DNA from: an uncultured Acidimicrobiales bacterium
Lineage (GTDB): Bacteria > Actinomycetota > Acidimicrobiia > Acidimicrobiales > JANYDT01
Length of the DNA: 64,000 bases
Direction: 5' to 3'
Assembly: GCA_963763885.1 (NCBI GenBank)
Contig: CAVXQD010000007.1
Location: forward strand, 495,919 to 559,918
Shown here: positions 6,129-63,834 of the stretch, one piece after another
Layout: each line of letters begins with the position of its first letter
Position numbering within the stretch: the first letter of the stretch is position 1
Notes under the pieces: model-generated
What the model was told of the DNA's origin: nothing
What the model saw: the letters and a program-made list of their open reading frames with translations, nothing else
Database searches by the model: none
Position numbers and translations under genes: made by a program

Positions 6129-6166
6129 CGCTTCAACTGTGATTCAGTTCTAGCAAGAAGGCAGGG

Positions 6167-6526: not shown

Positions 6527-6870
6527 CAGTGTTCTCCCTGCCGGTCTCCGGCGTGTGTGGTGACGTTGATGGTGGTGGTGTTGCTGGTGATGCGGTCCTG
6601 ATGTTGTTGCGCTCGCGAGAGATTAAAAACCGACTGCCATGTGTGGCCGTAGTCACTTTCTTTCCCCGAATTTCTTCACACACGGTGATGAACTTTCAGG
6701 TACTCGAAATTTCACTTTCGGCCCGATCAGTACTGTACCGAGCGGTCAAGTTATCTGGGAAGAGGCTCCTTCGAGAATCTCTCCAACAGATGAAGACTAT
6801 CGGGATGACAGATCCAATGAGACAGGGTTCACACCGGTAGATAGCTCAACGACCACGGAACGTGGGAGGT

Positions 6871-10536: not shown

Positions 10537-10707
10537 GGATCACAGTCTGCCGCGGTTCGGATCGTCGGGCAGGGACGCCACCGCGAGAATCGATCTCTTG
10601 ACGGCGGATTGACGGCGTCTTGAAGTCAGGGGTCCCTCAGGGTTTCTCCATTGCATCTTTCGCAGCATGTGGAGTGACCGCAAGAACCCTGGGATAGTGT
10701 CCGAAGC

Positions 10708-16443: not shown

Positions 16444-16451
16444 GGCTACAC

Positions 16452-17537
16452 ATGGTCTGTTCTTCCTGTGCAGCAACCAACCCAGCCGATGCCGCCTTCT
16501 GCGAAGCGTGCGGTGCGTCGACTGGCGCGCAAGCAACGAGTGCATCGGCTGAATCGCAACAAGGACAAGAGCTTCTTCCCGGCGAGTCCAGCGTGGCCAC
16601 CATGCCGAACGTGTCAACGATGCCGAACGTGTCCAACGTTGCCAACTTGCCATGTGTGGCGTGCGGCAACGTGGTGGAGGACCAGTACTGCACCGAGTGC
16701 GGAGTGAAGCAGCCTTCACCACGCGACCATTTCGAAATCCTGTTCTCGTCGCGTCTTGCTGGAGTCTGCGACCGAGGCATTCTGCACGCTGCCAACCAAG
16801 ATGCCATGGCAATTGCACCTGGCCCAGACCAGCAGTCCGGCGTCTTAGTGGTGTGCGACGGAGTCACCAGTGCGCCGTTGAGCGAACGGGCATCTCTTGC
16901 AGCCGCAGCTGCGGCGTGCACGGTGCTGGAAGCGGGCTTTCGGACTGAGCCAGCAGCTCGCACCGAAGCATTCTGGGCCGATGCACTGCGCACCTCGTGC
17001 ACCATCGGGCAGGCCGAAACCGTTGCGGTGGCGCGCACCCTCGGCGACCCGCCAGAGCCTCCGTCGTGCACGTTTGTGGCGGTCGTCATCGAGGCCGGGG
17101 TGCTGCACATTGGCTGCTGCGGGGACTCTCGCGCATACTGGTTGCCCGATGCCGGCGATGGGCTAATCCTCAGCACCGACGACTCCATCGCTTCACAACT
17201 CATCGCTGGCGGGATGCCGAGGGCCACTGCTGAAGCAGACTCACGCGCGCATACGATCACTCGCTGGTTGGGCGCGGACTCCCATGATCCCACCGCCCGA
17301 GTCGGGACGGTCAAGGTGTCAGGCGATGGCTGGGTAGCCGTTGTTTCCGACGGTATGTGGAACTACGCGTCAGAGCCTGCCGCCCTTAAGGCCCAGATGA
17401 GCAATGTCGATGCACTCACCAACGCGCGGTCCATGGTGCAGTATGCCAACGCCCAAGGCGGAGTGGACAACATCACCGTCACGTTGTTGCGGCTAGGCAA
17501 CCCTTCGTCTGAATCCCCAGCAGAATCCAACTTGTAA
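16452..17537 (+). CDS. PP2C (PPM) Ser/Thr phosphatase with N-terminal double zinc ribbon
   Basis: CSSCAATNPADAAFCEACG and CVACGNVVEDQYCTECG, then PPM motifs (NQDA, VCDGV, GDSRAY, SDGMWN, GGVDNITV). Confidence 0.85.
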   Translation: MVCSSCAATNPADAAFCEACGASTGAQATSASAESQQGQELLPGESSVATMPNVSTMPNVSNVANLPCVACGNVVEDQYCTECGVKQPSPRDHFEILFSSRLAGVCDRGILHAANQDAMAIAPGPDQQSGVLVVCDGVTSAPLSERASLAAAAAACTVLEAGFRTEPAARTEAFWADALRTSCTIGQAETVAVARTLGDPPEPPSCTFVAVVIEAGVLHIGCCGDSRAYWLPDAGDGLILSTDDSIASQLIAGGMPRATAEADSRAHTITRWLGADSHDPTARVGTVKVSGDGWVAVVSDGMWNYASEPAALKAQMSNVDALTNARSMVQYANAQGGVDNITVTLLRLGNPSSESPAESNL

Positions 17538-17547
17538 AGGCCAACCG

Positions 17548-18849
17548 ATGCCAACCTTCAGCGCGCAGACCTTTCAGAACGAGTACGTCGCAGACGGCGC
17601 CGACGAGATTCACGCCATCGTCACCGTGACCTGCAGCGGGACAGGGGCCTCGTCCACTGCACCCTCGTCCGGCACCGCAGCCGAAGTGCTCATCATCGAT
17701 GCGTCCGGCTCCATGGAGTCGCCGCCCACCAAGATTGCGGCAGCCCGACGCGCAGGCATGGCAGCAATCGATGAGATCAGCGACGGTGTCTATTTCGCCG
17801 TCATTGCCGGGCGCAGCCAGCCGCAGATGGTGTACCCGTTCCAGACCGAGTTGGTGCGGATGGACGCTCAGCAGCGAGTCAACGCGAAGCAGGCCGTCGA
17901 GTGGCTGAAGGCCGATGGAGCCACCCCGCTTGGCACCTGGCTGATGGCAGCGCGCGGTTTGTTCTCCACGGTGATGGCAGACAAGCGTCACGCCATTCTG
18001 CTCACCGACGGACGCCAGGAAGGCGAAGAGCCCCACGTGCTGGATTACGCGCTGTCGCAGTGCCAGGGCGTGTTTCAGTGCGACTGTCGTGGCATCGGAG
18101 CCGACTGGGAAGTTGAACAACTCCGGCGCATTTCATCTGCGCTCATGGGAACGGTCGACATCGTGGCCAAACCAGAAGATCTCGACGACGACTTCCGTCA
18201 GATGATGCAGACATCAATGTCTCGGGGTGTGGCCGACGTGCGGCTGCGGGTGTGGGCTCCACAGGGTTCGCAGCTGCTGTTTGTGCGCCAGGTTGCCCCG
18301 CAGGTTGAGGACATGACGTCGCGTGCAACGCAGGTCGGCCCGCTCATCAGGGAATTCGGTACCGGCGCGTGGGCCAACGAATCTCGGGACTATCACGTTG
18401 CCGTGAAGGTTCCGCCGGCTCCTGTTGGTAACGAACGTTTGTCTGCGCGCGTAGAAGTTGTTGTCAACGATGAGGTGCAGGCAAAGGCACTGGTCAGGGC
18501 CGTGTGGTCAAACGACGTTGCTATGACTACCCGCATGAACTCTGCTGTTGCGCACTACACCGGCCAAGCTGAGCTGGCGGATGCCATTCAGCAGGGTCTT
18601 GCAGCCAAAGCCGCAGGTGATGAGAACGCAGCCACCGTGCTGCTGGGTAAGGCAGCCAAGTTGGCTCACGACACCAACAACGAGGCGACTATGCGGCTGT
18701 TGAAGAAGGTCGTCGAAGTGGACGATGCCGATGCCGGCACCGTGCGCTTGCGACGCGACGTCGAGAAGTCAGACGAGATGGCCCTCGATACTCGCAGTAC
18801 CAAGACCGTGCGTATCAGCAGAACTCCGCCAACGGGAGCGCAACCATGA
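17548..18849 (+). CDS. vWA domain protein
   Basis: MIDAS-type DASGSM, ...GATPLG..., ILLTDGRQ; long helical C-terminal region. Confidence 0.8.
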   Translation: MPTFSAQTFQNEYVADGADEIHAIVTVTCSGTGASSTAPSSGTAAEVLIIDASGSMESPPTKIAAARRAGMAAIDEISDGVYFAVIAGRSQPQMVYPFQTELVRMDAQQRVNAKQAVEWLKADGATPLGTWLMAARGLFSTVMADKRHAILLTDGRQEGEEPHVLDYALSQCQGVFQCDCRGIGADWEVEQLRRISSALMGTVDIVAKPEDLDDDFRQMMQTSMSRGVADVRLRVWAPQGSQLLFVRQVAPQVEDMTSRATQVGPLIREFGTGAWANESRDYHVAVKVPPAPVGNERLSARVEVVVNDEVQAKALVRAVWSNDVAMTTRMNSAVAHYTGQAELADAIQQGLAAKAAGDENAATVLLGKAAKLAHDTNNEATMRLLKKVVEVDDADAGTVRLRRDVEKSDEMALDTRSTKTVRISRTPPTGAQP

Positions 18850-19592
18850 CCACACCGTGCCCTAACGGTCACCGCTCAACCGATCCGGAGTGGTGCGACA
18901 CTTGTGGCGCACCACTCGGCACTCCGCCAGCCGGGTCAGGGTCCGGCTCCGCGCCTTCAGCTCCGCCCAGCTCGGGAGTCTCCTCGGGGGCAGGAAAGCC
19001 GGGCGCAACGATCAACTGCCCCTCGTGCGGTGACCCAAACGCAGAGTCCAACTTGTTCTGTGAATCTTGCGGGCTGGACTTTGTGACCGGGCAGGTTCCA
19101 ACCCCGCCACCTGCTGCTGCGCCACATCCGGTGCTGCCAGCCGCAGCCCCGGCCGTTGTGACGCCGCCGGTCGACCCGGGAACAGACCTTGGTTGGACCG
19201 TCACGCTCGCTGTTGACCCCGAGTGGTTCGCAGCCAAAGGTGAAGGAATCGGAATCCCGCCAAGCAGGGCAGAACGCGTGCAGGAACTGCGTCACTCGCC
19301 GTTGGTCATCGGGCGCACTCGTTCCGCTGGTGCAAGCCCCGGGATCGTGATCGACGATGACCACGGAATCTCACGTCGCCACGCCGAGGTCACTCACGAC
19401 CCGGCTACGGATTCGTGGAACATCACCGACCTCGGATCAACCAACGGCACGTTTGTGGTGGCTGCCGGCACGGCGCTTTCCGCTTCGCTTTCGCCCATCA
19501 CGCCCAACACGCCGACGCCCTTGTCTGAGTCAGACCGTGTGTTCGTTGGCGCATGGACCCAAGTCACCTTTGCCCGCACGGTCACGCCCTGA
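18846..19592 (+). CDS. FHA domain protein with N-terminal double zinc ribbon and Pro-rich linker
   Basis: CPNGH...WCDTCG and CPSCGD...FCESCG; FHA core LVIGR...GISRRHAEV...ITDLGSTNGTFV. ATGA overlap with the vWA gene. Confidence 0.85.
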   Translation: MTTPCPNGHRSTDPEWCDTCGAPLGTPPAGSGSGSAPSAPPSSGVSSGAGKPGATINCPSCGDPNAESNLFCESCGLDFVTGQVPTPPPAAAPHPVLPAAAPAVVTPPVDPGTDLGWTVTLAVDPEWFAAKGEGIGIPPSRAERVQELRHSPLVIGRTRSAGASPGIVIDDDHGISRRHAEVTHDPATDSWNITDLGSTNGTFVVAAGTALSASLSPITPNTPTPLSESDRVFVGAWTQVTFARTVTP

Positions 19593-20992: not shown

Positions 20993-21024
20993 AAGGAATC
21001 AAGGAATCAAGGAATCAAGGAATC
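20993..21024. repeat. 8-bp tandem repeat x4 (aaggaatc)
   Basis: Perfect four copies between the DUF2332 start and the sufC1 stop, overlapping the sufC1 stop codon. Confidence 0.9.
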
Positions 21025-21772
21025 AAGCGGCACGGAAGGCGTCGTAGCCGTCGGCTTCGAGCTGCTTGGCCAACTCGGGACCGCCCGAGGCGACGATGCG
21101 ACCATCGACCATGACGTGCACGAAGTCAGGGGTGAGGTAATCCAACAGACGTTGGTAGTGAGTGATGAGCAACACGCCCATCTCTGGCCGGTCACGGCGA
21201 ACTTCTTGGACGCCCTTGGCGACGACGCGCAACGCATCGATATCCAAGCCGGAGTCTGTTTCGTCGAGGATGGCAAACTCTGGCTCGAGGATGGCCATCT
21301 GCAAGATCTCGTTGCGCTTCTTCTCGCCACCGGAGAAACCCTCGTTCAGGTAACGGTCTGCGAATGCAGGGTCCATCTCCAGACGCGCCATCCATTCGCG
21401 GATGTTGAGGCGCAGTTCCAGCACGGAAAGGTCGATGCCCTTGCGGGCCGAGAGCGCCCGGCGGAGGAAGTTAATAACAGTCACACCGGGAATCTCTTCG
21501 GGGTACTGAAACGCCAGGAAGATGCCGGCCTTGGCCCGCTCGTCTGTTTCCCATGCCGTGATGTCTGTGCCGTTAAAACGGACGGCACCGGACTGGATGA
21601 GGTACTCCTCGTTGCCCATCAGGGCGTTGGCCAAGGTGGACTTGCCAGACCCGTTGGGCCCCATGATGGCGTGAACCTCGCCTTTGCCCACCGTGATGGA
21701 CAAGCCCTTCAGGATGTTCTGGGCTTCCACGCTGACGTGGAGATCTTCGACCTGAAACAGCGGCTCGCTCAC
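21023..21772 (-). CDS. sufC: Fe-S cluster assembly ATPase SufC (copy 1)
   Basis: GTG start at 21772 (VSEPLFQVEDLHV). Walker A GPNGSGKST, signature SGGEKKR, Walker B ILDETDSGLD, H-loop ITHY. Confidence 0.85.
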   Translation of the reverse strand: MSEPLFQVEDLHVSVEAQNILKGLSITVGKGEVHAIMGPNGSGKSTLANALMGNEEYLIQSGAVRFNGTDITAWETDERAKAGIFLAFQYPEEIPGVTVINFLRRALSARKGIDLSVLELRLNIREWMARLEMDPAFADRYLNEGFSGGEKKRNEILQMAILEPEFAILDETDSGLDIDALRVVAKGVQEVRRDRPEMGVLLITHYQRLLDYLTPDFVHVMVDGRIVASGGPELAKQLEADGYDAFRAA

Positions 21773-21792
21773 CCGAACAGTGTACCGACCTA

Positions 21793-21851
21793 TTTCCCCT
21801 ACCTCCGTAGGTGAAAGGTGGCTCCCCAAATACTTTCCCCTACGCTGGTAG
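21793..21851. promoter_or_regulatory. two copies of TTTCCCCTAC-N4-GTAG (internal CCTAC/GTAGG dyad) in the sufC1 / sufS divergent region
   Basis: 21793-21811 tttcccctacctccgtagg and 21834-21851 tttcccctacgctggtag, 41 bp apart; candidate operator pair. Confidence 0.35.
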
Positions 21852-21872
21852 TAGAAACTCCGAGCCGGTAGA

Positions 21873-23147
21873 GTGTGGCCTGTGACGAGCCCGACCATTC
21901 CGCAGACGGCCACCTGCGGCTTCGTGCCGTCCTTGGTGAAGCAGGACTTCCCCATTTTTGATCGGCAGATCAACGGGAAGCGCATTGTGTATCTGGATTC
22001 GGCCAACTCCACCCAGAAACCGCGCCAGGTCATCAATGCCATGACGCACTTCCTGGAGCATGACTATGCGCCAATCAACAGATCGTCGTATCGCTTGGCG
22101 GCCGACGCAACCGAAGCTGTTGAAGGCGCACGCTCCAAGATCGCCAACTTCATCGGGGCTCGGCGTCCGCACGAAGTCATCTTCACCAAGAACGCCACCG
22201 AGGCACTCAACCTGATTGCGCACTCCTGGGGCAGGGCCAACATGGCCACATCTGATGCCATCCTGCTCACCCACATGGAACACCACGCAAACGTGGTGCC
22301 GTGGCAGATGCTGCAGGCGGAACGCGGGATCGAAATCCGTTGGGTTCCACTCACCGAAGACGGGCGACTGGACCTCACCAATCTCGACGCGTTGCTTGAC
22401 GGTGTGAAGGCGTTCAGCTTCACGGCCATGTCCAACGTGCTTGGCACCGTGAACCCCGTTGCGGAACTCACTGCGGCAGCGCACCGCCATGGCGCCGTCG
22501 CCATCGTTGACGCTTGCCAGTCCGTTCCGCACAACACCACCAACGTGCAAGACATGGGCGCAGATCTCATTGCGTTCTCTTCACACAAGATGTGCGGCCC
22601 CACCGGCCTCGGCATTCTGTGGGGCAAAGAGGCGCTTCTCGATGCCATGCCTCCGTTCCTTGGCGGCGGGTCCATGATCACCGACGTGCGCCTGGATGGG
22701 TTCACCGCTGCGCCATTGCCAGACAAGTTTGAAGCCGGCACGCAGCCAACCACCGAAGCCGTTGGGCTTGGTGCGGCCATTGACTACCTCAGCGCGCTCG
22801 GCATGGACAGCATCCGCCGCCACGAGAAGGCGCTCATCACCTACGCAATTGATTCGCTGACGGAGCGGTTCGGATCCGATCTCACCATCCACGGCCCGCA
22901 CGACTCTGACGCTCGCGGGGCCGTGATGTCGTTTGCCTACCGCAACGTTCACCCACACGACCTCAGCCAGGTACTGGACGAATCCAATGTGTACGTACGA
23001 GCTGGGCATCACTGCGCCAAGCCGCTCATGCGCACCCTGGGTACGGGTGCCACGGCCCGAGCCAGCTTCTACATTTATAACGACGAAGCTGATGTCGACG
23101 CGTTGGGCGATGCACTTGCCCACGTCGGCGACGTGTTCACGTTCTGA
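21873..23147 (+). CDS. sufS: cysteine desulfurase SufS
   Basis: 424-aa class V aminotransferase: ...FPIFDRQINGKRIVYLDSANSTQKP..., SSHKMCGPTG (PLP Lys), RAGHHCA (active-site Cys loop). Confidence 0.9.
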   Translation: MWPVTSPTIPQTATCGFVPSLVKQDFPIFDRQINGKRIVYLDSANSTQKPRQVINAMTHFLEHDYAPINRSSYRLAADATEAVEGARSKIANFIGARRPHEVIFTKNATEALNLIAHSWGRANMATSDAILLTHMEHHANVVPWQMLQAERGIEIRWVPLTEDGRLDLTNLDALLDGVKAFSFTAMSNVLGTVNPVAELTAAAHRHGAVAIVDACQSVPHNTTNVQDMGADLIAFSSHKMCGPTGLGILWGKEALLDAMPPFLGGGSMITDVRLDGFTAAPLPDKFEAGTQPTTEAVGLGAAIDYLSALGMDSIRRHEKALITYAIDSLTERFGSDLTIHGPHDSDARGAVMSFAYRNVHPHDLSQVLDESNVYVRAGHHCAKPLMRTLGTGATARASFYIYNDEADVDALGDALAHVGDVFTF

Positions 23148-23152
23148 TCCAC

Positions 23153-23209
23153 CTCAACCCCCGCCTCAAACCCCGCCTCAAACCCCGCCTCAAACCCCGC
23201 CTCAACCCA
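23153..23209. repeat. 12-bp tandem repeat x about 4.75 (cctcaaaccccg)
   Basis: Fills most of the sufS-sufU intergenic spacer. Confidence 0.9.
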
Positions 23210-23222
23210 AGGACTAGACGAG

Positions 23223-23741
23223 ATGCCCGGCCTCGAAGACCTATACCGAGAGATCATCCTCGATCACTACAACCGTCCGCGCAACAAGGGCGAGCTACCA
23301 CCACCTGCGCATCGCACCGATGGCATGAACCCCTTGTGCGGCGACGAGATTGCGGTGTACCTGGTGGTTGACGGCAACACCGAAGACGCAATCGTTACCG
23401 ACATCTCTATCGGCGGTCAGGGCTGTTCCATCAGCCAGGCTTCGGCCTCCATGATGACCACCGCCGTCAAGGGCAAAAAGGTCAGCGAGGCTCGCGAAAT
23501 CATCACCGCGTTCAAGTCGATGATGGGCATCCAAGACGCTGCACACGGCGCGGCGGCCGAAACTGGAATCGACGACTCGGCGCACGATCACGACCACGAC
23601 GATGCAGCGGAATCACCTGCCGTCAAACTTGGCGATCTCGAAGCGCTCCGCGGCGTGGTGAAGTTCCCCGTGCGAATCAAGTGCGCAACCCTGGCATGGA
23701 ACACCATGGGCCAAGGGCTCGACGAACTCGCTGGCGCATAA
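23223..23741 (+). CDS. sufU: SUF-system NifU-like scaffold/sulfur acceptor SufU
   Basis: LYREIILDHYNRPRN...NPLCGDEI...GQGCSISQASASMM...RIKCATLAW. Confidence 0.9.
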   Translation: MPGLEDLYREIILDHYNRPRNKGELPPPAHRTDGMNPLCGDEIAVYLVVDGNTEDAIVTDISIGGQGCSISQASASMMTTAVKGKKVSEAREIITAFKSMMGIQDAAHGAAAETGIDDSAHDHDHDDAAESPAVKLGDLEALRGVVKFPVRIKCATLAWNTMGQGLDELAGA

Positions 23742-37217: not shown

Positions 37218-38000
37218 TCAGAAAGGGATATCGGCGAATGGGTCTGCGCCGCGTGCAGCAGCAGCTGCCTCGGGTGGCAGATACTGCTCGTAGCCGGTGC
37301 GTTCCAGTTCTTTGGCCAGCTCTGGCCCACCAGACTTGACGATGGTGCCCTTCACAAAAACGTGCACAACGTCTGGCGTGAGTTCGTCCAACAGGCGCTG
37401 GTAATGCGTGATGGCCAACACGCCAAGGCCGTCTTCCTGCGACGCTTGCAGTACACGTCGGCTGACGGCGCGCAGTGCGTCGACGTCGAGACCGGAATCG
37501 ATTTCGTCGAGGATGGCAAAGCGCGGTTTGAGCACGCCCAGCTGCACCGTTTCGTTGCGCTTCTTCTCGCCGCCGGACAGGCCGACGTTCAGCGCTCGGT
37601 CCAAGAAGCGGTGATCGAAGCCGATACGGTCTGCCTCGGCCTCCATCAAGGCAACGACATCAGCGTCGGCTCGGCCGGCGGCTCGCATTGACGCCTGGAG
37701 CATTTCGGAAAGGACGACGCCGGGAACTTCGGTTGGATACTGCAGGCCGAGGAACAAGCCGGCATGCGCCCTCTTCCAGGTGGGAAGCGCAAGCACATCG
37801 ACCCCGTCCAAGGTGACCGTGCCGGCGGTGGCTTCATAACCGGGACGACCCATCAACACATGCGACAACGTGGACTTGCCGGAACCGTTGGGGCCCATCA
37901 GCGCGTGCACTTCGCCAGAGCGAATGGTGAGGCTGAACCCTTTGAGGATCTCTGTACCGACAGGACCGCCGGTGAGACCGGAGATGACAAGTTCGCTCAT
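37218..38000 (-). CDS. sufC: Fe-S cluster assembly ATPase SufC (copy 2)
   Basis: GPNGSGKST, SGGEKKR, ILDEIDSGLD, ITHY. ATGA overlap with the sufD-Rieske stop. Confidence 0.85.
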   Translation of the reverse strand: MSELVISGLTGGPVGTEILKGFSLTIRSGEVHALMGPNGSGKSTLSHVLMGRPGYEATAGTVTLDGVDVLALPTWKRAHAGLFLGLQYPTEVPGVVLSEMLQASMRAAGRADADVVALMEAEADRIGFDHRFLDRALNVGLSGGEKKRNETVQLGVLKPRFAILDEIDSGLDVDALRAVSRRVLQASQEDGLGVLAITHYQRLLDELTPDVVHVFVKGTIVKSGGPELAKELERTGYEQYLPPEAAAAARGADPFADIPF

Positions 38001-39694
38001 GGCTGTTGGTCCGACCCTGCTGCGTCTGGGGTGTAGGTAGTGCTTTGTGAGAACTCGATCAACACGTCGTCGCCGGCGAGTGTCACCACGTAAACCTGGA
38101 CCGGCTGTGTTGCGGGCAAGGACTGAGGTTCACCGGAGACCAACGAGAACGTGGTGCCGTGTTTCCAGCATTCGATCTCGCATTCGTCGTCCCAAATGGT
38201 GCCTTCCGACAACGAGACCTCGGCGTGCGTACAGGTGTCGTCGATGACGTAGACGTCGTCTTGGATGCGGACGACGGCGAGCGGCAAACCGTTGACCACC
38301 ACACGCGTGGCAGAAGACGGGGCAAGCGCGGAGAACTGTGCGACCTTGACCTGCGTCATGGCGGCTACTCCTGCTGCGCTTCCCGCAGTGGACCCAGCCG
38401 CGTGTGAACGGCCAAACTTCTCGACGAACACGCCGGTCAGCGCCTCGGCCACACCTGGCACCGGCGATCGGTCAAGGACGTCAGCGAAGAAGCCCGTGAC
38501 GATGAGACGCTCTGCCTCTTCTGGTGGCACACCGCGCAGTTCGAGGTAGTAGCGGTGGTCGTGGTCAACCGGACCGACCGCTGAAGCGTGGCTGCACTTG
38601 ACCTCGTTGTTTTCGATCTCGAGGTTTGGCACCGATTCAACTGAAGCCGTGGGCGAGAGCAACAGATTGCGGTTGGCCTGGTTGGCAACAGCGTTGCGAG
38701 CATCGACGCCGATCTTGATGAGGCCCGAGTACACGGACTGCGAGTGGTCCTGCACGGCACCTTTGAACAACAGCTCGCTGGTGGTGCGAGGGCCGATGTG
38801 ATGCTGCAGCGTACGAAAGTCGTGCATCTGATGCCCAGCACCGAAGTACACCGCGAGCAGTTCGTTGAAGCCGCCCTGTTCGGTAACAACAGCGTCGGTT
38901 CGTACGCGCGCATAGCTTCCGCCCAACGCAACCGACATTGTTCGTAACGTTGCGTCTCGGCCGGTGTTGCATTGCTGGTGCGCAACCTGGAAGCACTGGT
39001 CGCCTAGTTCCTGCACGCTGACGAAGCGCAGCGTGGCGCCTGTACCAACAGAGAGTTGCGTGATGGGCGTGAAGAGCGACCCAGCCCCGTCGCCGACGAT
39101 TCGTTCGACGATAGAGACCGATGCGTTTTCGCCAACCTGTACGACAAGCGACGACGGAATGTACGCGCGCTGACTAGCCACCTGGTTGATGACCTGCACG
39201 ACGCCAGGGATGGTGGACCCACGAGGAACGGCTATGACCAACGCATCTGTTGCGACTGCAAGGGCCAGATCGACGAACAGATCTCCACCGTTCACGCGCG
39301 GGTCCGTGACCGCAGTGTCGTCTTTGGCTGCACTGGTGATGGAGAGCCCAGCGGCAGAGGCCGCCGACGTGACCGAAATGGAGTGCACAAACCCGTCGAT
39401 GAGATGAACCAACGCAGCGGGTTCACCGATGGGATGTGGGGTATGCGACACGCCAGGACCAGCCGGTTCAGTCGTGGCGCCGGGCGATGCGATGACGAGC
39501 CCGTCAACTGGGATCTTTGCGATGCGGGAGTACCGCCAGATTTCCGCTTCGGCGGTGGGGCGGACGAGCCCTGCAAGCGCAGCACCGGGAACGAGGTCCG
39601 CAAGCTTGAGGCCAAGACGGTTTGAAGCCTGCTCACGCAAGCTTGAAAGGGGCATTGCGACGGGGGTCGCGGAGGTTGCGTCGGTGGAGAGCAC
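37997..39694 (-). CDS. sufD: SufD fused in frame to a Rieske [2Fe-2S] ferredoxin domain
   Basis: The N-terminal roughly 430 aa are SufD-like (beta-helix region ...NRNLLLS...SVPNLEIENNEVKCSHASAVG...YYLELRGV). The C-terminal 120 aa carry the Rieske motifs CTHAEVSLSEG and CWKHGTTF. No stop lies between them. An internal ATG at 38359 is preceded by AGGAG. Confidence 0.8.
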   Translation of the reverse strand: MLSTDATSATPVAMPLSSLREQASNRLGLKLADLVPGAALAGLVRPTAEAEIWRYSRIAKIPVDGLVIASPGATTEPAGPGVSHTPHPIGEPAALVHLIDGFVHSISVTSAASAAGLSITSAAKDDTAVTDPRVNGGDLFVDLALAVATDALVIAVPRGSTIPGVVQVINQVASQRAYIPSSLVVQVGENASVSIVERIVGDGAGSLFTPITQLSVGTGATLRFVSVQELGDQCFQVAHQQCNTGRDATLRTMSVALGGSYARVRTDAVVTEQGGFNELLAVYFGAGHQMHDFRTLQHHIGPRTTSELLFKGAVQDHSQSVYSGLIKIGVDARNAVANQANRNLLLSPTASVESVPNLEIENNEVKCSHASAVGPVDHDHRYYLELRGVPPEEAERLIVTGFFADVLDRSPVPGVAEALTGVFVEKFGRSHAAGSTAGSAAGVAAMTQVKVAQFSALAPSSATRVVVNGLPLAVVRIQDDVYVIDDTCTHAEVSLSEGTIWDDECEIECWKHGTTFSLVSGEPQSLPATQPVQVYVVTLAGDDVLIEFSQSTTYTPDAAGSDQQP

Positions 39695-41350: not shown

Positions 41351-44300
41351 TCACCAGGTGATCTGGTGCGTGGCCGTGTTGTTGTAGACGTCCAACTTGG
41401 TAGCCAGGTCGATCTTGACCTGTCGGGTGGCGGAGTTCAGCGCAGTAACGGTTTGACTTACCACCTGCGCTGTGGTCAACGGATACGCACCGGCGCCACC
41501 CGCTGGCAACAGCGTTGCCGAGTAGCAGGCGTTGAGATACGCGGCGGTTGCTGCCCGAACCAGGATTTCGTTTGCACCTTCAACGCCCGGTCCACCTTTC
41601 AGGCCAAGGGCCTGCAGCAACGTCAGGGAGCTGATCGCTGCACCGCTGCGGGTCTTGACGGTGCCCGCAAGGTTCGTGAATATCGTACTGACGGGAGTGT
41701 TTGGAGTGAGCGGTCCGCATGCTCCGAGGTATTTGGGTTGCCACGCGTTGTTGGAGTTTCCAGTGGTGTGGTTCTTCCAGAAGCCAGGCGTGAACCCGAG
41801 GTAACCCGGTGCATAGCTTGCCGTGTCGGTATCCGATGGGCTTGGGAGACACATTGTTGCTGCGCATCCAATCGCCGTTGCGGTGTTGACGTAACTTGTG
41901 CCGCCGTTAAAGACCGCTGGCACGGGACCCGTCCAGCAGGTGACCGCTGCGTTGACTGCCACGGCGCCAACGCTGATTCCTGTTCCACTAACAGTGGACG
42001 GAACCGAACAGGTAGTCGGTGTGGTCGCAAGGGAAAACCGCGAGTCGGTCAGGGTGACCGGATCGAGTGCGACCTTGCCGTTGTTCGTGATCACGAACTG
42101 GAAGCAGAGCAAACTGCCAACCAGCACCGGCGACAAGCTATCGAAGTACCCAGTGGTTGGGCAGGTCGCACCCGTTGCGTAACCCACGGACTTCACAACG
42201 TCGATGGATGCGTACCGGTTGACGATGGTGCACGTAACCGTCTCGCCCTTGGCAACCGTCACTGTTGTGGCGGTCTTGGTGGCGGCACCGGTACAAGCCC
42301 ACGTTGTGCCGTTGACGTAGTTGAGGACGCTGCCGGTTTCACTCAGCGTGTAGGTACCGGTGAGCACTGACTTGTTGGTCACTGCAGCGGCACCGCTGGT
42401 TCCGCTGACGCCAGCTGTTGGGCCGGCAGCAAAGAGTGTCCACGACGATGCAAGCGCCGTTCCACCGTCAACCTGTTTCACCAGCGTCAAAGTGCCGGTG
42501 TCTCGGGTATTGGTAATGGTGCAGACGACGGTCTGACCCTTCGCAACGACCACCGTATCGAGGTCTCCAGCCGGCATCGTGCCGCCTGTACAAACCCACG
42601 CAGTGCCGTTGGTGTAACCCGCAACGGTTCCAGATTCGGACAGGTCGTAAGTGCCGGTATTAACTGTGGTTTGGGTATCCGACGGCACGTTTGTCACGGG
42701 AGTAGGGCCAGCGGCGGAAAGCGGCCACGAGGTTGCTGGCTCGTTACCACCGCTGACCGACTTCACCAACTTGAGGGTGCCCGTATCACGAGTGTTAGTA
42801 ATCGTACATACGACTTCTTTGCCCTTGGCGACGGCGACCGAGTCACCGTCAATCATGGCGATTGGAGCGCCATCAACCGTGCAGACCCATGTGGTCCCGT
42901 TGGTGTAACCGGCAACCGGTCCAGATTCGGACAAGTCGTAATTGCCCGTCAGCACCGCAGTACTTGTACCGGACTTCACGTTGACCACTGGGGTTGGCCC
43001 TGCGGCCGAAAGGTCCCACGCTGTTGGAGCCGCGGTGCCACCGCTGACGCTCTTGACAAGCTTCAGGCTGCCGGAGTCACGAGAGTTTGTAATCGTGCAG
43101 GTGTAGCTCTCACCCTTACTGATCACGAGGGTATTGAAACCAACTGGCACCACGTCAATATCGTTGATCCCGTCGTCGCAAATCCACGTGTCTCCGTTGG
43201 TGTATCCAGCAACGGTGCCGGACTCGGACAGCACGTACGAGCCGGTGAGCACAGTGGTAGTGGTTCCGGTCTCCACGTTGGTGATCGGTGTGGGACCAGC
43301 GGCCGAAAGTTTCCACTCGGTTGGCAGAGCAGCACCGCCAACCACCCGCTTCACCAGTTTCAAGGTGCCGGTGTCTCGGGTGTTGGTGATGGTGCAGGTG
43401 ACGTTCTGTCCCTTAGCAACAACCACCGAATCGCCATCAGTCATGGTGGCGTCAACGCCAGGGGGAGCCCCGACCTTGCAGACCCACGTGGTTCCGTTGG
43501 TGTATCCGACAACGCCAGCTTTGGCGGCTTCGGACAAGTCGTAGGTACCGGTCTTGACGGTGGTGGTTGTACCTGTGGGCACGTTCGTCACCGCAGTCGG
43601 GCCAGCTGCGGACAGGTTCCACGAGGTTGCTGCCTCGGTTCCGCCGCTGACGGACTTGACCAGCGTGAGGCTGCCGGTGTCACGGGTGTTGGTAATCGTG
43701 CATACGACCGTTGCATTTTCGGCAACGGCAACGGTGTCCGCGTCACCGGCCGGCATTACGCCGCCGGTGCACACCCAGGCGGTTCCGTTGGTGTAACCCG
43801 GAACTGACGCCAGACTCTGAGAGGTCATAGCTGCCTGTTGGGACAAGCGGAACTTGCACCGCCTGCCCCGCTCAAGACGGTATTGGCTGCGGTGGAAGTA
43901 CCCGTTGTGGAATCGCCAGTTGCGGTGAGCGTCCACAACTTTGGATCTGCCACTCCGTCGCTGACTGCCTTGACCAAGGTCAACGTGCCCGTCTTCCGGG
44001 TGTTGGTGATGGTGCAGGTGATGTTTTCAGTGCTTGCAAGGGTTACCGACGTCAGGTCTGTGCCCTTACCTGGACAATTCCACGTGGTTCCGTTGGTGTA
44101 GGTGCCCACGGTGCCGTTCTCGGAAAGCGAGTAGGTGCCGGTCGGCACGACTTGCGATGTCACCGCTGGGGTGCCGCTGACGCCTGTGATGGACACCGCC
44201 GGGGTTCCTGGGCCTGTCGCGGTGAGCGGCCACTGGGTGACTGTTCCGTTGCCACCGGCCACGTTCTTGACCAATGTCAGCGTGGCGGTGTTGCGGGTGT

Positions 44301-45365
44301 TGGTCATTGCCGCCTCAACGGGCGTAGGCCCAGCAGCCACAGGCGGGGTGACCGCCGGATTTGCCGTGGTAACGCTCCAAGCGCCGGCCAGGGTGGAAGA
44401 GGTCTCTGTGATGGAGCACACAGTTCCGGAGGGAAGCCCGGTCTTGTCCCATACCAACGGTGTGGCGTCGGCCTCTGGGAGGACGAAGTCAAACGAACCA
44501 GCGGTGCCGCAGTTAGCCGTGAACGAGAAGGAATACGCCTCGCCCGTTACTGCGCCGGTCACCGTCTTGGTGAAGCGAACCGCGCCAAGCCCAGGGGCGT
44601 TGGTGATGTTGACGGAGCTGGTTGAGCCAACGTCGAGCACGGTGGCCGGGCTACCCGTGACGACCCAATCGGCCAACGGAAGCGGGTTCCCATCGATGTG
44701 GGTCTCGGTCACCGTGCAGTCGTAGCCGGGAGGCACTGGCGCATTAATGGTCTGCGTACCCGACCCGACGATGGTGATCTCTCGCGTGAAGGCGATTGGG
44801 TCTGCCCCCCCGTCGCTGCACGCAATGCCGAATCGGTAAGTGTGCGAACCAGCAACTCCAGGGGCGACCGTCTTCGTGAGGTCAAAGGCCAGTGCGACAC
44901 AGACCAGAATCTGGTTGATTCCGCCAGTACCGAATGGGTTGAGGGTACTTCCAACTGGCGGGTAGTCGAAGAAACTGTTGTTGAACTGACCTGTGCCAGA
45001 CCGTCGTTGCCAGTGTCGAGATATACCCGGGTGAAGAGCAGATCTGTGCCGTACACCGTGGAAGTCACGCCCCCGAAGATCAACTGATTTGGGTCTGGAG
45101 CGGAGATTTCGGTGTAGGTCAGCGTGAAAGGGCCGGACGCCACTGCCTGAGCGGTATCGCTTATATCCAACTTGTTCGGAACGAATTTGACCGTCAGGCC
45201 CAGGTCGTTACCGCATGGTTTTCCCGGAGCGGGCGGGGTGGACGTTGAACCGTTGGGGGTGAGCACCGCCGCAGACGCCGAGGGCGCCGAGAGGCCGACC
45301 GTGATCAGGCCGATAGTCGCCAAAAGTGCGGCTATCGGGGAACGTAATCCCACCGAACCACCCAA
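41351..45365 (-). pseudogene. giant secreted surface/adhesin-like protein with about eight tandem Ig-like (prealbumin/SpaA-type) repeats; at least three frame breaks
   Basis: Three ORF-track pieces (44709..45365, 43825..44736, 41351..43936) join into one protein after frame changes near 45000, 43860 and 43808. Signal peptide ...GLSAPSASA. Repeat consensus CTITNTRDTGTL.LVKSVSGG....W.LSAAGPT...V..GT.T.V.TG.YDLSESG.VAGYTNGT.W.C. Confidence 0.7.
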
Positions 45366-46690: not shown

Positions 46691-49250
46691 CTAGCCGATG
46701 GAGCCTTCCATCTGCAGTTCAACCAGACGGCTCCACTCCACTGCAAACTCCATCGGCAGAGTGCGGGTGACTGGCTCCATGAAGCCGTTCACAATCATGG
46801 CCGTTGCTTGCTCCTTCGAGAGCCCGCGCGACTGGAGATAGAAGAGCTGGTCGTCGCCGACCTTGGAGACTGTTGCCTCGTGACCGATCTGCGCGTCCAT
46901 CACACCGGCGTTGCGCTCGATGTAAGGGTACGTATCGGAGCGGCTGTCACCGTCGAGGATGAGCGCATCGCACTGCACATGGCTCTTGACCCCTTCAGCA
47001 CCTTCTTCGACCCGCACCAAACCGCGATACGACGTACGGCCCCCGTCCTTGGAGATGGACTTGGAGATAACGCTGCTGGTGGTCTCTGGCGCTGCGTGCA
47101 CCATCTTGGCGCCAGTGTCCTGATGCTGGCCCTCGCCCGCATAAGCCACCGAAAGCACCTCGCCATGAGCCTTTGGACCCATGAGATAAATGGCCGGGTA
47201 CTTCATGGTGAGGCGACTGCCGATGTTGCCGTCGATCCAGCTCACTCGGGACTCTGCTTCAGCGCGGGCACGCTTGGTGACCAGGTTGAAGACGTTGTTG
47301 GACCAGTTCTGGATGGTGGAGTACGTGATGTGGCTGCCTTCAAGCGCAACCAACTCCACAACCGCTGAGTGCAGCGAGTCGCTGGAGTAGACCGGGGCCG
47401 AGCAGCCTTCGACGTAGTGAACCTTGGAGCCCTTGTCCGCGATGATAAGCGTACGTTCGAACTGGCCCATGTTCTCTTTGTTGATGCGGAAGTAGGCCTG
47501 CAACGGCATGTCCACCTCGACGCCTTCCGGCACGTAGATGAACGAGCCACCGGACCACACTGCGGAGTTGAGCGCAGAGAACTTGTTGTCGGCGATTGGG
47601 ATCACCGTTGCGAAGTACTTCTTGACGACCTCGGGATACTCACGCAGGGCCGTGTCCATGTCGCAGAAAATGACGCCCATCGACTCGAGGTCTTCCCGAT
47701 TGCGGTGGAATACAACTTCTGAGTTATGCACCACGAAGCCCTCTGCCACGAAATTGTGGTGGCCTTCGACAGTGATGTCGTAAACCAGCTCTGGGCCAGC
47801 GGGAGTGATGGACTCGACCCGTACATAGCCAAGCTGATCGCTTGTATGTGAACGAATGGTGGTGCCGTTGGCCGAGTTGCTGGTGTGCGCGTACTTGCGA
47901 GCCCCAAGCCGCTCGGTGCGTTTAGGCGACCGACACGGCAACCGATCGAACCGTCCACTCAGATGCAGGCGGTACGCAACGGCCGCAGTTTCATAGCCGG
48001 GCAAGGGCTTGTTCTGGAACCGCGTGATGCTCGAAGCATGAATGCCACAGAGCAGCGAAAGTTCCCGCAACGACTCCAGCATCGTCTCGTTTGCGCTAGT
48101 CAGCACAGGGTTCTTGGCACTCGGAGACGACCGTACATACCCGTCCGCATCGACGAAACCGGCGAGGAACGCCAATCGCTCGGAAGTAGGCAGGGCATAA
48201 ACCCAGTCAGGAACACGCTTCGTGTGCGCAGTTCCGGCAAGGTCATTGGCATACAGGAATCCGGCAAACGCTGCTGTGGCGTGCGCTGTGAGCCGCAATC
48301 CGTCAGCAGCCAAACTGAACTCGAGGCCAAACGACTCTCGTGCAACCCGTTGGATTTCAGCGATCAGTTCTGGGTCGGATGGATTGACTGCGAATTCCAC
48401 CGAGGTATAAGCGCCACGGTGGTGCAGATAACCATCGCCCAGGAACAATCCCAACATCCACATCACATCGTCTGAGGAGGTGATCGGCAGCCCACGGGAA
48501 TCCTCTGCTGACGCTCCGAAGAACAAAAAGTCGTACGACTCGCCGAACTCAGGAAGATCTGTAGCGATTGCCACCAGAGTCACCGACGGCAAGATCGTCG
48601 ACCGGAGTCCACTCGGCGTTGTACCGAGCGTTGAGCCTGTTTTGCTTTCGACGGTCCCTCAACGACAAGAACGGGTGATTGCCCGAGGCCGTGACCGAAT
48701 GGCCCTTGGCAGTAACGGTGAACGTCTCTTTTACGCCGCTGCAGGCGACTGCCGTCACCAACGCCGACTCGATCTGCCGCGTGTCGGTGTTCAACGAGAA
48801 CACGCGGTCACCCGGCTCGAGTTCCTTGATAGTCCGCATGCCCTGGTCAGTCCAGACCTTGGTGGAGCCGACGAGACATTCGTACTGCGCTGTGACCCCG
48901 GCGAGGTACTTCTGCTCGGCTTCGGGGATGCCCAACTTGTCGTAGGTGTTGCGGATGGCCGGGTCGAGGTCTTCCCAGTTGTTGACCTGCTTCGACGTGG
49001 GCTTGATGTAGTAGTAGATGTCGTCGAAGTAAATCTGCGACATGTCGCCACCAAACTTCGGCATCGGCTTCTTGTAGAAGACGTCCAGGGCGCGCAGACG
49101 GAATTTGCGCATCCAGTCCGGCTCGCCCTTCATGTGAGACATCTCTTCCACAATCTCGCGGCTGAGCCCACGCTTTGGCGTGAAGACATAGTCGACTTCA
49201 TCGCTCCAGCCAAGCTTGTACTTGCCGAGGTCAAGATCTTCGATCGTCAT
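46691..49250 (-). CDS. sufB: Fe-S cluster assembly protein SufB interrupted by an intein; reading frame broken inside the intein (48549-48592)
   Basis: N-extein [15 protein letters not shown]...[11 protein letters not shown] (AGGAG before ATG 49250). C-extein [13 protein letters not shown]...[20 protein letters not shown]. The two ORF-track pieces, 48549..49733 and 46691..48592, overlap by 44 nt. Confidence 0.85.
47723..48878 (-). mobile_element. SufB intein with LAGLIDADG homing-endonuclease domain
   Basis: Begins CLVGSTKVW (Cys1) and has block [18 protein letters not shown] motifs LGLFLGDGY and [10 protein letters not shown]. Ends FVVHN followed by Ser+1. The length of 1156 nt is not a multiple of 3. 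Confidence 0.85.
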
Positions 49251-60574: not shown

Positions 60575-61702
60575 CTAGTTACCCGGTAGCTTGACTCGGC
60601 CTCCCACAAGTTCCATCAGGCCGTCGGTAACCAGCGACTGGATGAGGCGAGAAGCCCGTTGCGGGTCGTGCTCCAGTCCCACCAGAGCAGCGACCTCATC
60701 GACCCTGCTGCCTTGAGCTGCGAGCCTCAGCACCCGACCCCTGAACTGACGATCGCTTCCAGCAAAACGGGACTGCGGCAAGGAGACACCCGCTGTTCCA
60801 GTCGCTGGATCTGCAGGCGGGGGATCTGAACCGGTCAGCGCAATTCCATAAGCGCACATAGCGGCCACGGGACACCGATCGCAGTTTGGATCGGTGCGGG
60901 TGCATACCAACGCTCCCAGATCCAGCATCGCCTGGTTCCACGCCCATCCTTGGCCGTCCGGCAATGCAGCATCGGCGGCTGCCTGCACCTCGAATCGATT
61001 CATCGTCCGGTTTGCCCAACGTGCAAGCAGTCGTGCGGTGTTGGTGTCGACCACAGCCACGTCGGCTTCGAAGGCGAATGCCAACACCGCTCTGGCCGTG
61101 TAGTCACCAACCCCGGGGAGCAGCAGGAGGGTGTCCAGCGTACGAGGGAACCCTTCGCTGTTCTCCTCCATCTGGGCAGCCAACAATTGCGCCGCTTGGT
61201 GCAGGTGTTTGGCACGCCGCGGGTACCCGAGGCCCTCCCACAGCCTCAGCACGTCGCCAAGCGGGGACGCAGCGCATGCCTGCGGCGTTGGCCAACGTTC
61301 CAGGAACTCCAGCCACTTGGGTATGACCCTGTGCACCTGGGTCTGCTGCGCCATCACCTCGCTCACCAGCACCGCCCACGGGTCGCGTGTGTGACGCCAC
61401 GGAAGGTCTCTACCATGCTGGCCCGCCCAGCTCAATACGGGCGCGGCCGAGTGGTGAACGGAGGGATCGGAGTTGAACCCGAGGTTGAGCAACCCATCAG
61501 ACGCGGGCGCGGCCGAGTGGTGAACGGAGGGATCGGAGTTGAACCCGAGGTTGAGCAACCCATCAGACACGGCCCGAGCCCTGGACTCCTTGAGCGTCAC
61601 GGCGGGCTGCGATACACCTGATCGCCGAGCCATGGCAGCCATTCTGGCCGCCTCTCCTGGGGGATTGCGACCGTCTCGGACCCATTTGGATCGATTGGAC
61701 AA
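60575..61702 (-). CDS. mutY: A/G-specific adenine glycosylase MutY with N-terminal extension
   Basis: LPWRHTRDPWAVLVSEVMAQQTQV, HhH-GPD LPGVGDYTARAVL, and the Fe-S cluster loop CTRTDPNCDRCPVAAMC. Confidence 0.85.
   Translation of the reverse strand: MSNRSKWVRDGRNPPGEAARMAAMARRSGVSQPAVTLKESRARAVSDGLLNLGFNSDPSVHHSAAPASDGLLNLGFNSDPSVHHSAAPVLSWAGQHGRDLPWRHTRDPWAVLVSEVMAQQTQVHRVIPKWLEFLERWPTPQACAASPLGDVLRLWEGLGYPRRAKHLHQAAQLLAAQMEENSEGFPRTLDTLLLLPGVGDYTARAVLAFAFEADVAVVDTNTARLLARWANRTMNRFEVQAAADAALPDGQGWAWNQAMLDLGALVCTRTDPNCDRCPVAAMCAYGIALTGSDPPPADPATGTAGVSLPQSRFAGSDRQFRGRVLRLAAQGSRVDEVAALVGLEHDPQRASRLIQSLVTDGLMELVGGRVKLPGN
61441..61572. repeat. 66-bp tandem duplication (65/66 identical)
   Basis: Units 61441-61506 and 61507-61572; encodes SDGLLNLGFNSDPSVHHSAAP(A/V) twice in the MutY N-terminal extension. 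Confidence 0.95.
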
Positions 61703-61748: not shown

Positions 61749-63428
61749 ATGGCAGATCAGCTTGCTCCCGTTCCGTCCGCACTCCCAACTCCTCTTCCAG
61801 AGCCAGACATGACCGCAGCCGCTGCTGTGGTTGGTCAATGCCGGGCAGTTGTTGACGCAGCCATCAACCACCTTGCAGCGTCGGGAGGACGGGCCGACGA
61901 AATCGTCGACGCCAACCAGCAGGTTGCCTACGACCTTGCCCACGCTGCTGCTGCCGTGGAGAACGCTCGCTCCGTTATCGATTACGGCGCACGGGGGAAC
62001 ATCGAGGGCCGAATCGCTTGTGCATTCGTCGCTGATGCTGCCCACGATGTGTTCACCCGCATGCTTGGCCGCGAAGCCGAATGGGGCGTGGCCTCAGGCG
62101 GTCTCGACGCAGCACTTTCGTTCATCCGCAGCTATCGATCCCCCGCCTATCTCGCTGCGCTGGGAGACGATGTCATCGCCGTCGGCGGTGGTCCCCGTCA
62201 CCTGGACCCAGACTTCGACATGGTCGCCGATACGTTCCGACGCTTCGCCGACGAGCAAGTACAGGTCCACGCCGAGCACGTGCATCGGCACAACGCAGAC
62301 GTGCCGGAAAGCGTCATCAACGGCCTGGCGGAGATGGGTGGCTTCGGGCTGTCGGTGCCAGAGGAATACGGCGGCTTCTCCACGGGCGGCGAAGGTGAAT
62401 ACCTGGGCATGGTGGTCGCCACTGAAGAGCTTTCCCGCGGTTCGCTTGGCATCGGCGGATCGCTCATCACCCGACCAGAGATCCTCACCCGTGCCCTGGT
62501 ACGTGGTGGCACCGATGCACAGAAGCAAGAGTGGCTGCCCAAGATCGCAACAGCAGAGGTGCTGGGTGCGGTTGCCGCAACCGAACCTGACTATGGCTCC
62601 GATGTTGCTGGTTTCAAAGTCACCGCCACCGCCGTCCAAGACGGTGCCGCGTACGCAATCAACGGTGTCAAGACCTGGTGCACGTTCGCCGCACGCGCAA
62701 ACGTGCTCCTGCTCCTTGCACGGACAGACCCAGACCGCAGCAAGGCTCACCGTGGTTTGTCCATGTTCCTGGTGCCAAAGCCTGTTGCAGACGGCCACGG
62801 TTTCGCGTTCACCGAGACTTACGCAGACGGCACCATCGGCAAGTTGGAAGGCCGCCCAATCGACACCTTGGGATACCGAGGTATGCACTCATATGAAATC
62901 GCGTTGGAGAACTGGCGCGTTCCTGCTGACCATCTCATCGGCGGCGAGGGCGGGCTCGGCAAGGGCTTTTACTTCCAGATGGAAGGGTTCGAAAACGGGC
63001 GCCTTCAAACGGCTGCACGTGCAGTTGGACTCATGCAGGCTGCATACGAAGCAGCCGTGGCGTATGCCGCCAACCGGCGTGTGTTCGGCAAGGACATCGT
63101 GGAGTATCAGCTCACCAAGGTGAAACTGGCACGTATGGCTGTGGTCATTCAGGCCAGCCGGCAGTTCTCTTACGACGTGGCCAAGATGATGGGCAAGGGT
63201 GACGGGGCGATGGAAGCCTCGATGGTCAAGGCCTACGTCTGCCGGGCTGCGGAATGGGTGACGCGTGAGGCCATGCAGATCCACGGTGGCATGGGCTACG
63301 CCGAGGAGTATGCGGTCAGCCGCTACTTCGTGGATGCTCGTGTGCTGTCGATCTTTGAAGGTGCTGACGAGACGCTGTGTCTCAAGGTCATCGCCCGACG
63401 CTTGTTGGAATCCGCCGGAGCCAAGTGA
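61749..63428 (+). CDS. acyl-CoA dehydrogenase family protein
   Basis: 559 aa with ...GSDVAG..., ...INGVKTWCTFA... and the C-terminal ...QIHGGMGYAEEYAVSRYFVDARV..IFEGA pattern. Confidence 0.85.
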   Translation: MADQLAPVPSALPTPLPEPDMTAAAAVVGQCRAVVDAAINHLAASGGRADEIVDANQQVAYDLAHAAAAVENARSVIDYGARGNIEGRIACAFVADAAHDVFTRMLGREAEWGVASGGLDAALSFIRSYRSPAYLAALGDDVIAVGGGPRHLDPDFDMVADTFRRFADEQVQVHAEHVHRHNADVPESVINGLAEMGGFGLSVPEEYGGFSTGGEGEYLGMVVATEELSRGSLGIGGSLITRPEILTRALVRGGTDAQKQEWLPKIATAEVLGAVAATEPDYGSDVAGFKVTATAVQDGAAYAINGVKTWCTFAARANVLLLLARTDPDRSKAHRGLSMFLVPKPVADGHGFAFTETYADGTIGKLEGRPIDTLGYRGMHSYEIALENWRVPADHLIGGEGGLGKGFYFQMEGFENGRLQTAARAVGLMQAAYEAAVAYAANRRVFGKDIVEYQLTKVKLARMAVVIQASRQFSYDVAKMMGKGDGAMEASMVKAYVCRAAEWVTREAMQIHGGMGYAEEYAVSRYFVDARVLSIFEGADETLCLKVIARRLLESAGAK

Positions 63429-63432
63429 CAGC

Positions 63433-63834
63433 GTGAACGTCTACCGAGTCACTGTCCGAGGCGAGTTCAAGGGTTTGTCCCCGCGCGCCAAGTCGTGGCT
63501 CGCAGCGTCGGCCGACCAGCACGACCTGTTCCTCAGTTCCTTTACCGAGGAAGGCACGCTCACCTACGATGCCCAACTCCGAGCGTTCAACCTTCGCTAT
63601 GAAGTTCGCCTGGCACCTGACAGCGGGCCAGAAGGTGGGCCGAAACCTGGCCCGAAAGCTGACCTGGAAAACGAAACGGCCACCGGAGACCCGGCAGCCG
63701 TTGCATTGAAAGAAGCTGAACTTTTCTTGCGAACCATGGGTTTGGCTCATGGACCACTGCGGAGTGCGGTGATGGACATGAACGCCATGACGGCCAAAAG
63801 TGAACGGCGGTCGGCGAGTCAGCCCATTGGGTGA
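63433..63834 (+). CDS. hypothetical protein
   Basis: GTG start 5 nt after the ACAD stop (VNVYRVTVRGEFKGLS...). No motif recognised with confidence. Confidence 0.45.
   Translation: MNVYRVTVRGEFKGLSPRAKSWLAASADQHDLFLSSFTEEGTLTYDAQLRAFNLRYEVRLAPDSGPEGGPKPGPKADLENETATGDPAAVALKEAELFLRTMGLAHGPLRSAVMDMNAMTAKSERRSASQPIG

Follow-up and report, generated by a model that had tools for sequence, protein, structure and literature searches.

When the reading frame of a gene breaks off inside an intein, is the gene dead, newly divided into two cooperating halves, or simply misassembled? The question is raised by sufB in a 64,000-nucleotide (nt) stretch of DNA from an uncultured Acidimicrobiales bacterium (GenBank assembly GCA_963763885.1, contig CAVXQD010000007.1, positions 495,919 to 559,918), here called the window. 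The SufB precursor encoded there carries an intein, and the frame is lost within it. We put a probability of roughly 0.78 on the reading that the broken frame is a consensus or assembly indel in a long-read metagenome-assembled genome (MAG), not a pseudogene or a natural split intein. That reading is favoured because the lesion amounts to a single surplus base, selection downstream of it is unrelaxed, further single-base shifts lie nearby, the parent contig is 2.23 Mb long, and Nanopore MAGs show a base rate of such breaks.

The gene lies on the minus strand, from an ATG at 49250 to a stop at 46693-46691, with AGGAG in the sequence just upstream of the ATG; its 2560 nt equal 1 modulo 3. Its parts are listed here, invariance being judged in a 12-sequence alignment of the repaired SufB with 11 homologs.

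46691-49250, minus strand: sufB precursor gene (extein-intein-extein, stop included), 2560 nt as assembled, 2559 nt (852 codons plus stop) minus one base.
48879-49250, minus strand: N-extein, 124 amino acids (aa), C-terminal end GVTAQYE, 98% identical to intact relatives.
47723-48878, minus strand: predicted class-1 intein with LAGLIDADG homing-endonuclease domain, 1156 nt (385 x 3 + 1) as assembled, 385 aa when repaired.
48852-48878, minus strand: block A with the Cys1 nucleophile, CLVGSTKVW; C125 invariant.
48669-48692, minus strand: block B with its conserved His, TASGNHPF; N191, H192, P193 and F194 invariant.
48428-48454, minus strand: LAGLIDADG motif 1, LGLFLGDGY; G271, D272, G273 and Y274 invariant.
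48137-48166, minus strand: LAGLIDADG motif 2, within Pfam LAGLIDADG_3 and Hom_end.
47720-47785, minus strand: blocks F and G with Ser+1, invariant, aligning to the C-terminal splicing region of solved inteins.
47738-47785, minus strand: block F alone.
47720-47737, minus strand: intein end FVVHN with Ser+1 (FVVHN/S).
46694-47722, minus strand: C-extein, 343 aa, SEVVFH...EGSIG, readable in the +1 frame only.

Everything that the initial annotation had described in this gene (intact exteins, a 1156-nt intein with Cys1, block B, two LAGLIDADG motifs, and a terminal His-Asn followed by Ser+1) is present. Domain searches agree on what the pieces are. Both halves of the intein match Pfam Intein_splicing, LAGLIDADG_3 (1.7e-12) and Hom_end are matched as well, and the exteins match SUFBD_core (3.8e-84) and SufBD_N (1.2e-11), the domains that define SufB. 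Intein residues 9-83 and 342-385 find HINT-domain matches in the DnaB and DnaX mini-inteins, block B aligning to GNHKF of a solved DnaB mini-intein, and the endonuclease part matches PI-PkoII. With Cys1, the block-B His, a His-Asn end plus Ser+1, and two LAGLIDADG motifs that keep their acidic residues, the element is, on its sequence, a canonical class-1 LAGLIDADG intein at GVTAQYE/S, predicted to be self-splicing. Only the continuous frame expected of such an intein is missing as assembled, and it returns on removal of one base.

The setting of this intein is well populated. A search with the SufB precursor repaired by deleting one base found complete SufB proteins with an intein by the hundred, 846-856 aa in size, in uncultured Acidimicrobiia and Acidimicrobiales. 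The top match, P0001 (GCA_031385545.1, contig JANNBN010000071.1; locus L001), has 852 aa, the repaired length, at 95% amino-acid identity, with many others at 65-77%. These intact precursors share the insertion site (GVTAQYE/C...HN/SEVVFH) and the 385-aa intein layout of the window; they differ in being uninterrupted open reading frames (ORFs), whereas the window has its surplus base. The closest of them also share the neighbourhood (NHL protein, sufB, BrkB, SpaA, then sufD-Rieske-sufC), and L001 has the full gene order of the window: dTDP-sugar epimerase, S9 peptidase, hexapeptide transferase, NHL protein, sufB, BrkB, SpaA-type surface protein, a hypothetical gene, sufD, Rieske, sufC and a pyridoxal-phosphate enzyme. 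Among 81 sufB loci of species-representative genomes, 16 bear the intein and 65 lack it. The 65 are colinear across the insertion (query residues 1-127 and 495-852 align contiguously), and the intein-extein frame is continuous in 15 of the 16, the remaining one, L016, being broken at another position. The intein itself is ordinary, the QYE/S site being common to hundreds of Acidimicrobiia. Two inteins are present in some Acidimicrobiales SufB precursors that measure about 1256 aa (P0006, P0007, P0026 and about 15 others), the first at QYE/S and the second at DGNIG/SRLTMKY, which corresponds to extein position 292/293 here (window 47198-47233).

Where, then, and how is the frame lost? Two features locate the break.

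48577-48578, minus strand: surplus base, either C at 48577 (T[C]TG) or T at 48578 ([T]CTG), in no homopolymer, inside the VGD/LVAIA strand.
48549-48551, minus strand: premature TGA in frame 0, after nine aberrant codons (SGGNRYRSS) that follow the shift.

Frame 0 stops at this TGA (48551-48549), the sufB frame having shifted by +1, and from 48658 onwards the +1 frame stays open as far as the usual end of SufB. The frame change had earlier been confined to 48549-48592; homology now puts it at 48577/48578, with tblastn high-scoring segment pairs that stop at 48579 and resume at 48577, bracketing the switch. A MAFFT global alignment of the 2560 nt of the window with the 2559 nt of L001 (about 81% identity) has exactly one gap, at which the window reads GACTCTGG against GACT-TGG in L001, and across the 1884 nt downstream of the break this alignment shows neither another stop nor another indel. 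At the break, each of the 16 intein-bearing relatives has GD(L/Y)VA(I/V), with no extra residues; the Leu codon there is TTG in the two nearest relatives and CTN in the other intein-bearing loci. With one base removed, the gene encodes an 852-aa protein of the same size as the intact homologs P0001, P0122 and P0124, and the repaired protein aligns without gaps across the break in the 12-sequence alignment. The single gap and the uniform reading of 16 of 16 relatives together indicate that the lesion is, by alignment, one surplus base, C 48577 or T 48578. The break sits in the final strand conserved in the N-terminal splicing region, a few residues short of where the endonuclease domain starts, and not, as the initial annotation had it, after the N-terminal splicing domain.

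Under the consensus-error reading, the real sufB would encode an intact 852-aa precursor, a single chain of a 124-aa N-extein, a 385-aa intein and a 343-aa C-extein, from which the intein would be excised by canonical cis-splicing (Cys1, block-B His, terminal His-Asn and Ser+1) to leave a 467-aa SufB. The surplus base at 48577/48578 would have arisen during consensus building of a long-read MAG; we infer both its absence from the real DNA and the long-read source.

If the gene had been dead for any length of time, the sequence beyond the break should record it. Synonymous divergence (dS) from the two closest relatives, L001 and L002 (JAYSSK010000001.1), is about 0.4-1.4, large enough for selection to be measured. 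The ratio of non-synonymous to synonymous divergence (ω, or dN/dS) of the post-break intein is 0.045-0.055 against either relative, compared with 0.053 between the two intact relatives themselves, and that of the C-extein is 0.004-0.006 against the relatives, all at dS of about 1; in both regions the values equal those that the intact relatives give with each other. Changes found in one lineage only tell the same story, given here as amino-acid/synonymous counts for the post-break intein and then the C-extein: 12/45 and 1/67 in the window lineage, 12/44 and 0/37 in L001, and 11/37 and 1/26 in L002. The window lineage thus shows no more amino-acid change than either of the others. Neutral drift of the C-extein over the whole terminal branch would be expected to yield about 224 non-synonymous changes; one was observed, for which the 95% Poisson bound is 4.7, and any unconstrained phase is therefore shorter than about 2% of the branch. 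Downstream selection is not relaxed, and the lesion must be very young, if it is real at all.

The same measurements bear on the intein as a genetic element. The whole intein, homing endonuclease included, is under strong purifying selection (ω about 0.05 at dS about 1) in three lineages. The relatives L017-L025 lack the intein despite 88-90% extein identity. To judge from these patterns, the constraint on the intein and its absence from such close relatives suggest that the endonuclease may still be active or that the intein has some other selected role.

The sufB break has company. The next gene but one, 3-5 kb away, is also frame-broken.

41351-45365, minus strand: SpaA_2/DUF5979 surface-protein gene with a signal peptide and three single-base frame shifts; its ortholog in L001 is one ORF of 1337 aa.

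One of these shifts is a -1 near 45012; the remaining pair, both +1, lie some 55 nt from each other near 43800-43860, and there LSGAGGAS, VPTGSYDLSESG and VPGYTNGTAW fall in three separate frames. The gene contains no nonsense codon, and its protein is 55-70% identical to the L001 ortholog. Elsewhere the comparison with L001 is clean: tblastn gave a single full-length match in one frame for 12 of 14 syntenic genes (the 325-aa hypothetical gene matching only in part), the exceptions being sufB and the SpaA_2/DUF5979 gene. An ab initio frameshift map based on GC content at third codon positions gave a weak signal at 61% GC and was replaced by Pfam scans, which detected no split domains in about 40 further window ORFs; a DUF6204 ORF (63262-63834) suspected of truncation proved intact, with an internal low-complexity insert. 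All four single-base frame disruptions in the window therefore lie between 43.8 and 48.6 kb, and none comes with excess substitutions. Damage limited to indels in this way bears the mark of consensus error and not that of biological decay.

The provenance of the sequence and the behaviour of comparable assemblies fit this picture. The deposited annotation splits sufB into a 233-aa N-fragment (P0125) and a 630-aa C-fragment called from GTG 48583 (P0123). In exact-sequence cluster look-ups these two and four other window proteins each occur on one contig of 2,231,767 bp (NCBI, ENA) and nowhere else. A single 2.23-Mb contig from an uncultured member of the Acidimicrobiia points to a long-read assembly. 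Frame-broken sufB is found in 4 of the 81 species-representative loci, at the following positions.

L015: 7887-7902
L016: 7260-7265
L066: 6174-6185
L079: 6066-6075

L016, L066 and L079 are Nanopore-only MFD MAGs with a broken sufB, and in L066 and L079 the break falls in the extein of an intein-less gene. By source, sufB is broken in 3 of 17 MFD MAGs and in 1 of the remaining 64 loci (Fisher p = 0.028). The MFD MAGs were built from Nanopore reads only, with one round of Medaka polishing (PMC12313526), and Nanopore consensus indels are known to cause frameshifts in called genes, above all where coverage falls under about 40x, the depth needed for near-finished quality (PMC9262707). The four broken representative genes are probably assembly indels in an essential marker gene. 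Like the window, the Nanopore-only MFD-LR MAGs have isolated single-base indels in conserved essential genes on Mb-scale contigs.

Several observations pull the other way. The window differs from the MFD-LR frameshifts in that its sequencing platform is one we infer only from the 2.23-Mb contig, and in that its surplus base lies outside a homopolymer, the commonest context of Nanopore indels. Neither reads nor an independent assembly of the same strain could be found, exact-protein look-ups having come back empty. The distribution of the damage is also uneven: the four shifts cluster at 43.8-48.6 kb, while some 16 kb of syntenic coding DNA outside them looks clean, as do those parts of about 40 other ORFs that Pfam covers. 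This clustering is unexplained by a uniform error rate and needs a local cause, which may be that a strain-variable surface-protein gene and the intein gave mixed pile-ups in the metagenome. Metagenome contigs scanned with a pattern that spans the break and accepts both base counts gave no matches.

The alternative with most to be said for it takes the insertion as real and very recent, a fresh null or strongly deleterious sufB allele in the sampled population, tolerated through a second sufB elsewhere, as a minority or transient variant caught in the consensus, or in a dead-end lineage. The deposited sequence does, after all, contain the extra base, and each fragment was called as a gene of its own; the context is no homopolymer, the disrupted surface-protein gene could be read as real local decay, and the polymorphism of the intein among close relatives (L017-L025, again) makes an intein-free second allele conceivable. 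We nonetheless consider it unlikely. Such a mutation could have arisen only within about the last 2% of the terminal branch, with no relaxed selection and no secondary lesions to mark it, and four indels without nonsense or excess missense changes would be an unusual spectrum for biological decay. A majority null allele is improbable a priori in a gene essential in studied actinobacteria, the syntenic relatives keep the locus intact, and a tblastn search of the window for another sufB detected just the sufD paralog at 38444-39277. Of the compensated inactivating mutation proposed in the initial annotation, what survives is the extremely recent form. A long-standing pseudogene is excluded by ω of 0.005-0.05 downstream, by the lineage counts and by the lack of extra stops or indels; together with a slippage deletion of one copy of the 8-mer TCGGTGAC, it accounts for a share of our expectation close to nil. 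The slippage origin suggested earlier is attractive arithmetically (1156 + 8 = 1164 = 388 x 3), yet the VGDLVAIA of intact relatives has no room for the three restored residues (SVT), which are absent from 16 of 16 intein-bearing relatives, and the alignment to L001 requires a gap of 1 nt only; the relatives' alignments refute it.

A gene that is truly fractured and still functional, its 233-aa and roughly 630-aa fragments joining by trans-splicing or its ribosomes shifting +1 near GAC-U-CUG, seems to us very improbable. Its appeal lies in the position of the break, a few residues from the point at which the N-terminal splicing region meets the endonuclease, near where split inteins divide, and in the presence of +1-frame starts (TTG 48592, GTG 48583, GTG 48574 and TTG 48526), of which the gene caller took GTG 48583. 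None of these candidate starts, however, has a Shine-Dalgarno-like sequence within 20 nt, in contrast to the AGGAG of the sufB ATG. No split at this site occurs in any of the 16 intein-bearing loci or in the 120 best homologs from the database, every one of which is full length. The break falls within the VGD/LVAIA strand and so does not leave the N- and C-terminal splicing subdomains whole on either side: an N-fragment would be missing the LVAIA strand and would end in nine junk residues, and the endonuclease domain is kept. Recoding or transcriptional slippage by +1 fares no better, since the site (GGT GAC TCT GGT) offers no re-pairing option, slippery site, adjacent stop or homopolymer, the frame-0 stop comes nine codons further on, and no ortholog requires a shift. 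The trans-splicing halves that the initial annotation had already ranked as less likely thus find no supporting evidence here. A narrower version, in which the extra base is real and marks a just-born fractured intein whose endonuclease-bearing C-fragment and N-fragment trans-splice enough SufB, strikes us as more remote still; if true, it would offer a snapshot of the first step from a contiguous to a split intein in an essential gene.

Known inteins help to place both the element and the break. The SufB (Pps1) intein of Mycobacterium tuberculosis likewise belongs to class 1, has Cys1, the block-B His, a His-Asn end and a LAGLIDADG-type endonuclease domain, and interrupts SufB too. Splicing is needed there for SUF function (PMC8891592, PMC8861304), and the splicing and function of M. 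tuberculosis SufB are essential according to literature cited in PMC8861304. That precursor has a 252-aa N-extein, a 235-aa C-extein and a 359-aa intein with Cys+1 (PMC8891592); in the window the corresponding figures are 124, 343 and 385 aa, with Ser+1, so that insertion site and junction differ. By arithmetic rather than by alignment of the M. tuberculosis sequence, its site would correspond to EG/CSAP at extein position 231 here. In M. leprae the SufB (Pps1) intein has 386 aa and an endonuclease domain and is reported to occupy a SufB site other than that of M. tuberculosis (PMC8861304, PMC8891592); it is near-equal in size to the 385-aa intein of the window, and both have an endonuclease domain.

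Natural split inteins of the DnaE type (Npu and Ssp DnaE) are divided near the same boundary as the window break. They are encoded by two genes with their own start signals, have usually lost the endonuclease, and show a split that is conserved across species. The window, in contrast, has two overlapping frames at one locus, no ribosome-binding site for the second, a retained endonuclease and no split relatives.

The other suf genes of the window are intact, in the following places.

37218-39694, minus strand: sufD-Rieske ORF (37997-39694) and sufC (37218-38000), about 7 kb downstream of sufB, in the same order as in L001.
21855-23741, plus strand: sufS-like cysteine desulfurase gene (Aminotran_5) and sufU-like NifU_N gene.

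The suf genes are spread over about 28 kb, with the same layout in L001, and sufB stands alone, with BrkB, the surface-protein gene and the hypothetical gene between it and sufD-Rieske-sufC. SufD and the Rieske protein share one continuous ORF in the window (37997-39694), whereas the two genes of L001 are distinct and overlap by 4 nt. Next to sufS/sufU lies another SufC-like ABC ATPase (21023-22042), which has 50% identity to SufC.

An element of about 66 nt with the core GGTGAACGGAGGGATCGGAGTTGAACCCGAGG occurs as two tandem copies at 61438-61571 (plus strand), in or just upstream of an HhH-GPD ORF; in L001 (19316-19392) one copy lies in frame within sufC and adds about 21 residues that the SufC of the window lacks. 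It has no Rfam match and is found in none of the other 80 sufB loci, and it may be a small mobile repeat. Further afield, a signalling cluster at 10678-19592 (plus strand) comprises an SBP_bac_3 solute-binding protein, a PknG-type kinase with rubredoxin and TPR domains (14047-16443), and then a PP2C phosphatase, VWA and FHA/zinc-ribbon proteins, and resembles the actinobacterial GlnH/GlnX/PknG arrangement. A 538-aa ORF at 4302-5918 (minus strand) ends in a C-terminal HNH endonuclease domain; the adjoining 0.9 kb or so (5923-6840) holds only short overlapping ORFs with no family match and no convincing gene.

For this organism the finding is mainly a point of quality control: sufB should be flagged or corrected as carrying a probable assembly indel, and neither a pseudogene nor the loss of the SUF scaffold should be annotated from it. 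The comparison requested at the outset, between this intein and those of related SufB proteins, returned continuous frames in 15 of the 16 intein-bearing relatives and one surplus base in the window, and it was the single-nucleotide sequencing error, among the options first listed, that gained from it. The reasoning can be reused as a test for artefacts, one that combines a single-base gap against a close intact ortholog, unchanged dN/dS downstream, and a neighbouring gene with several indel-only lesions. The locus would become interesting in its own right only if reads confirmed the extra base, in which case it would present a fresh lesion in an essential intein-bearing gene.

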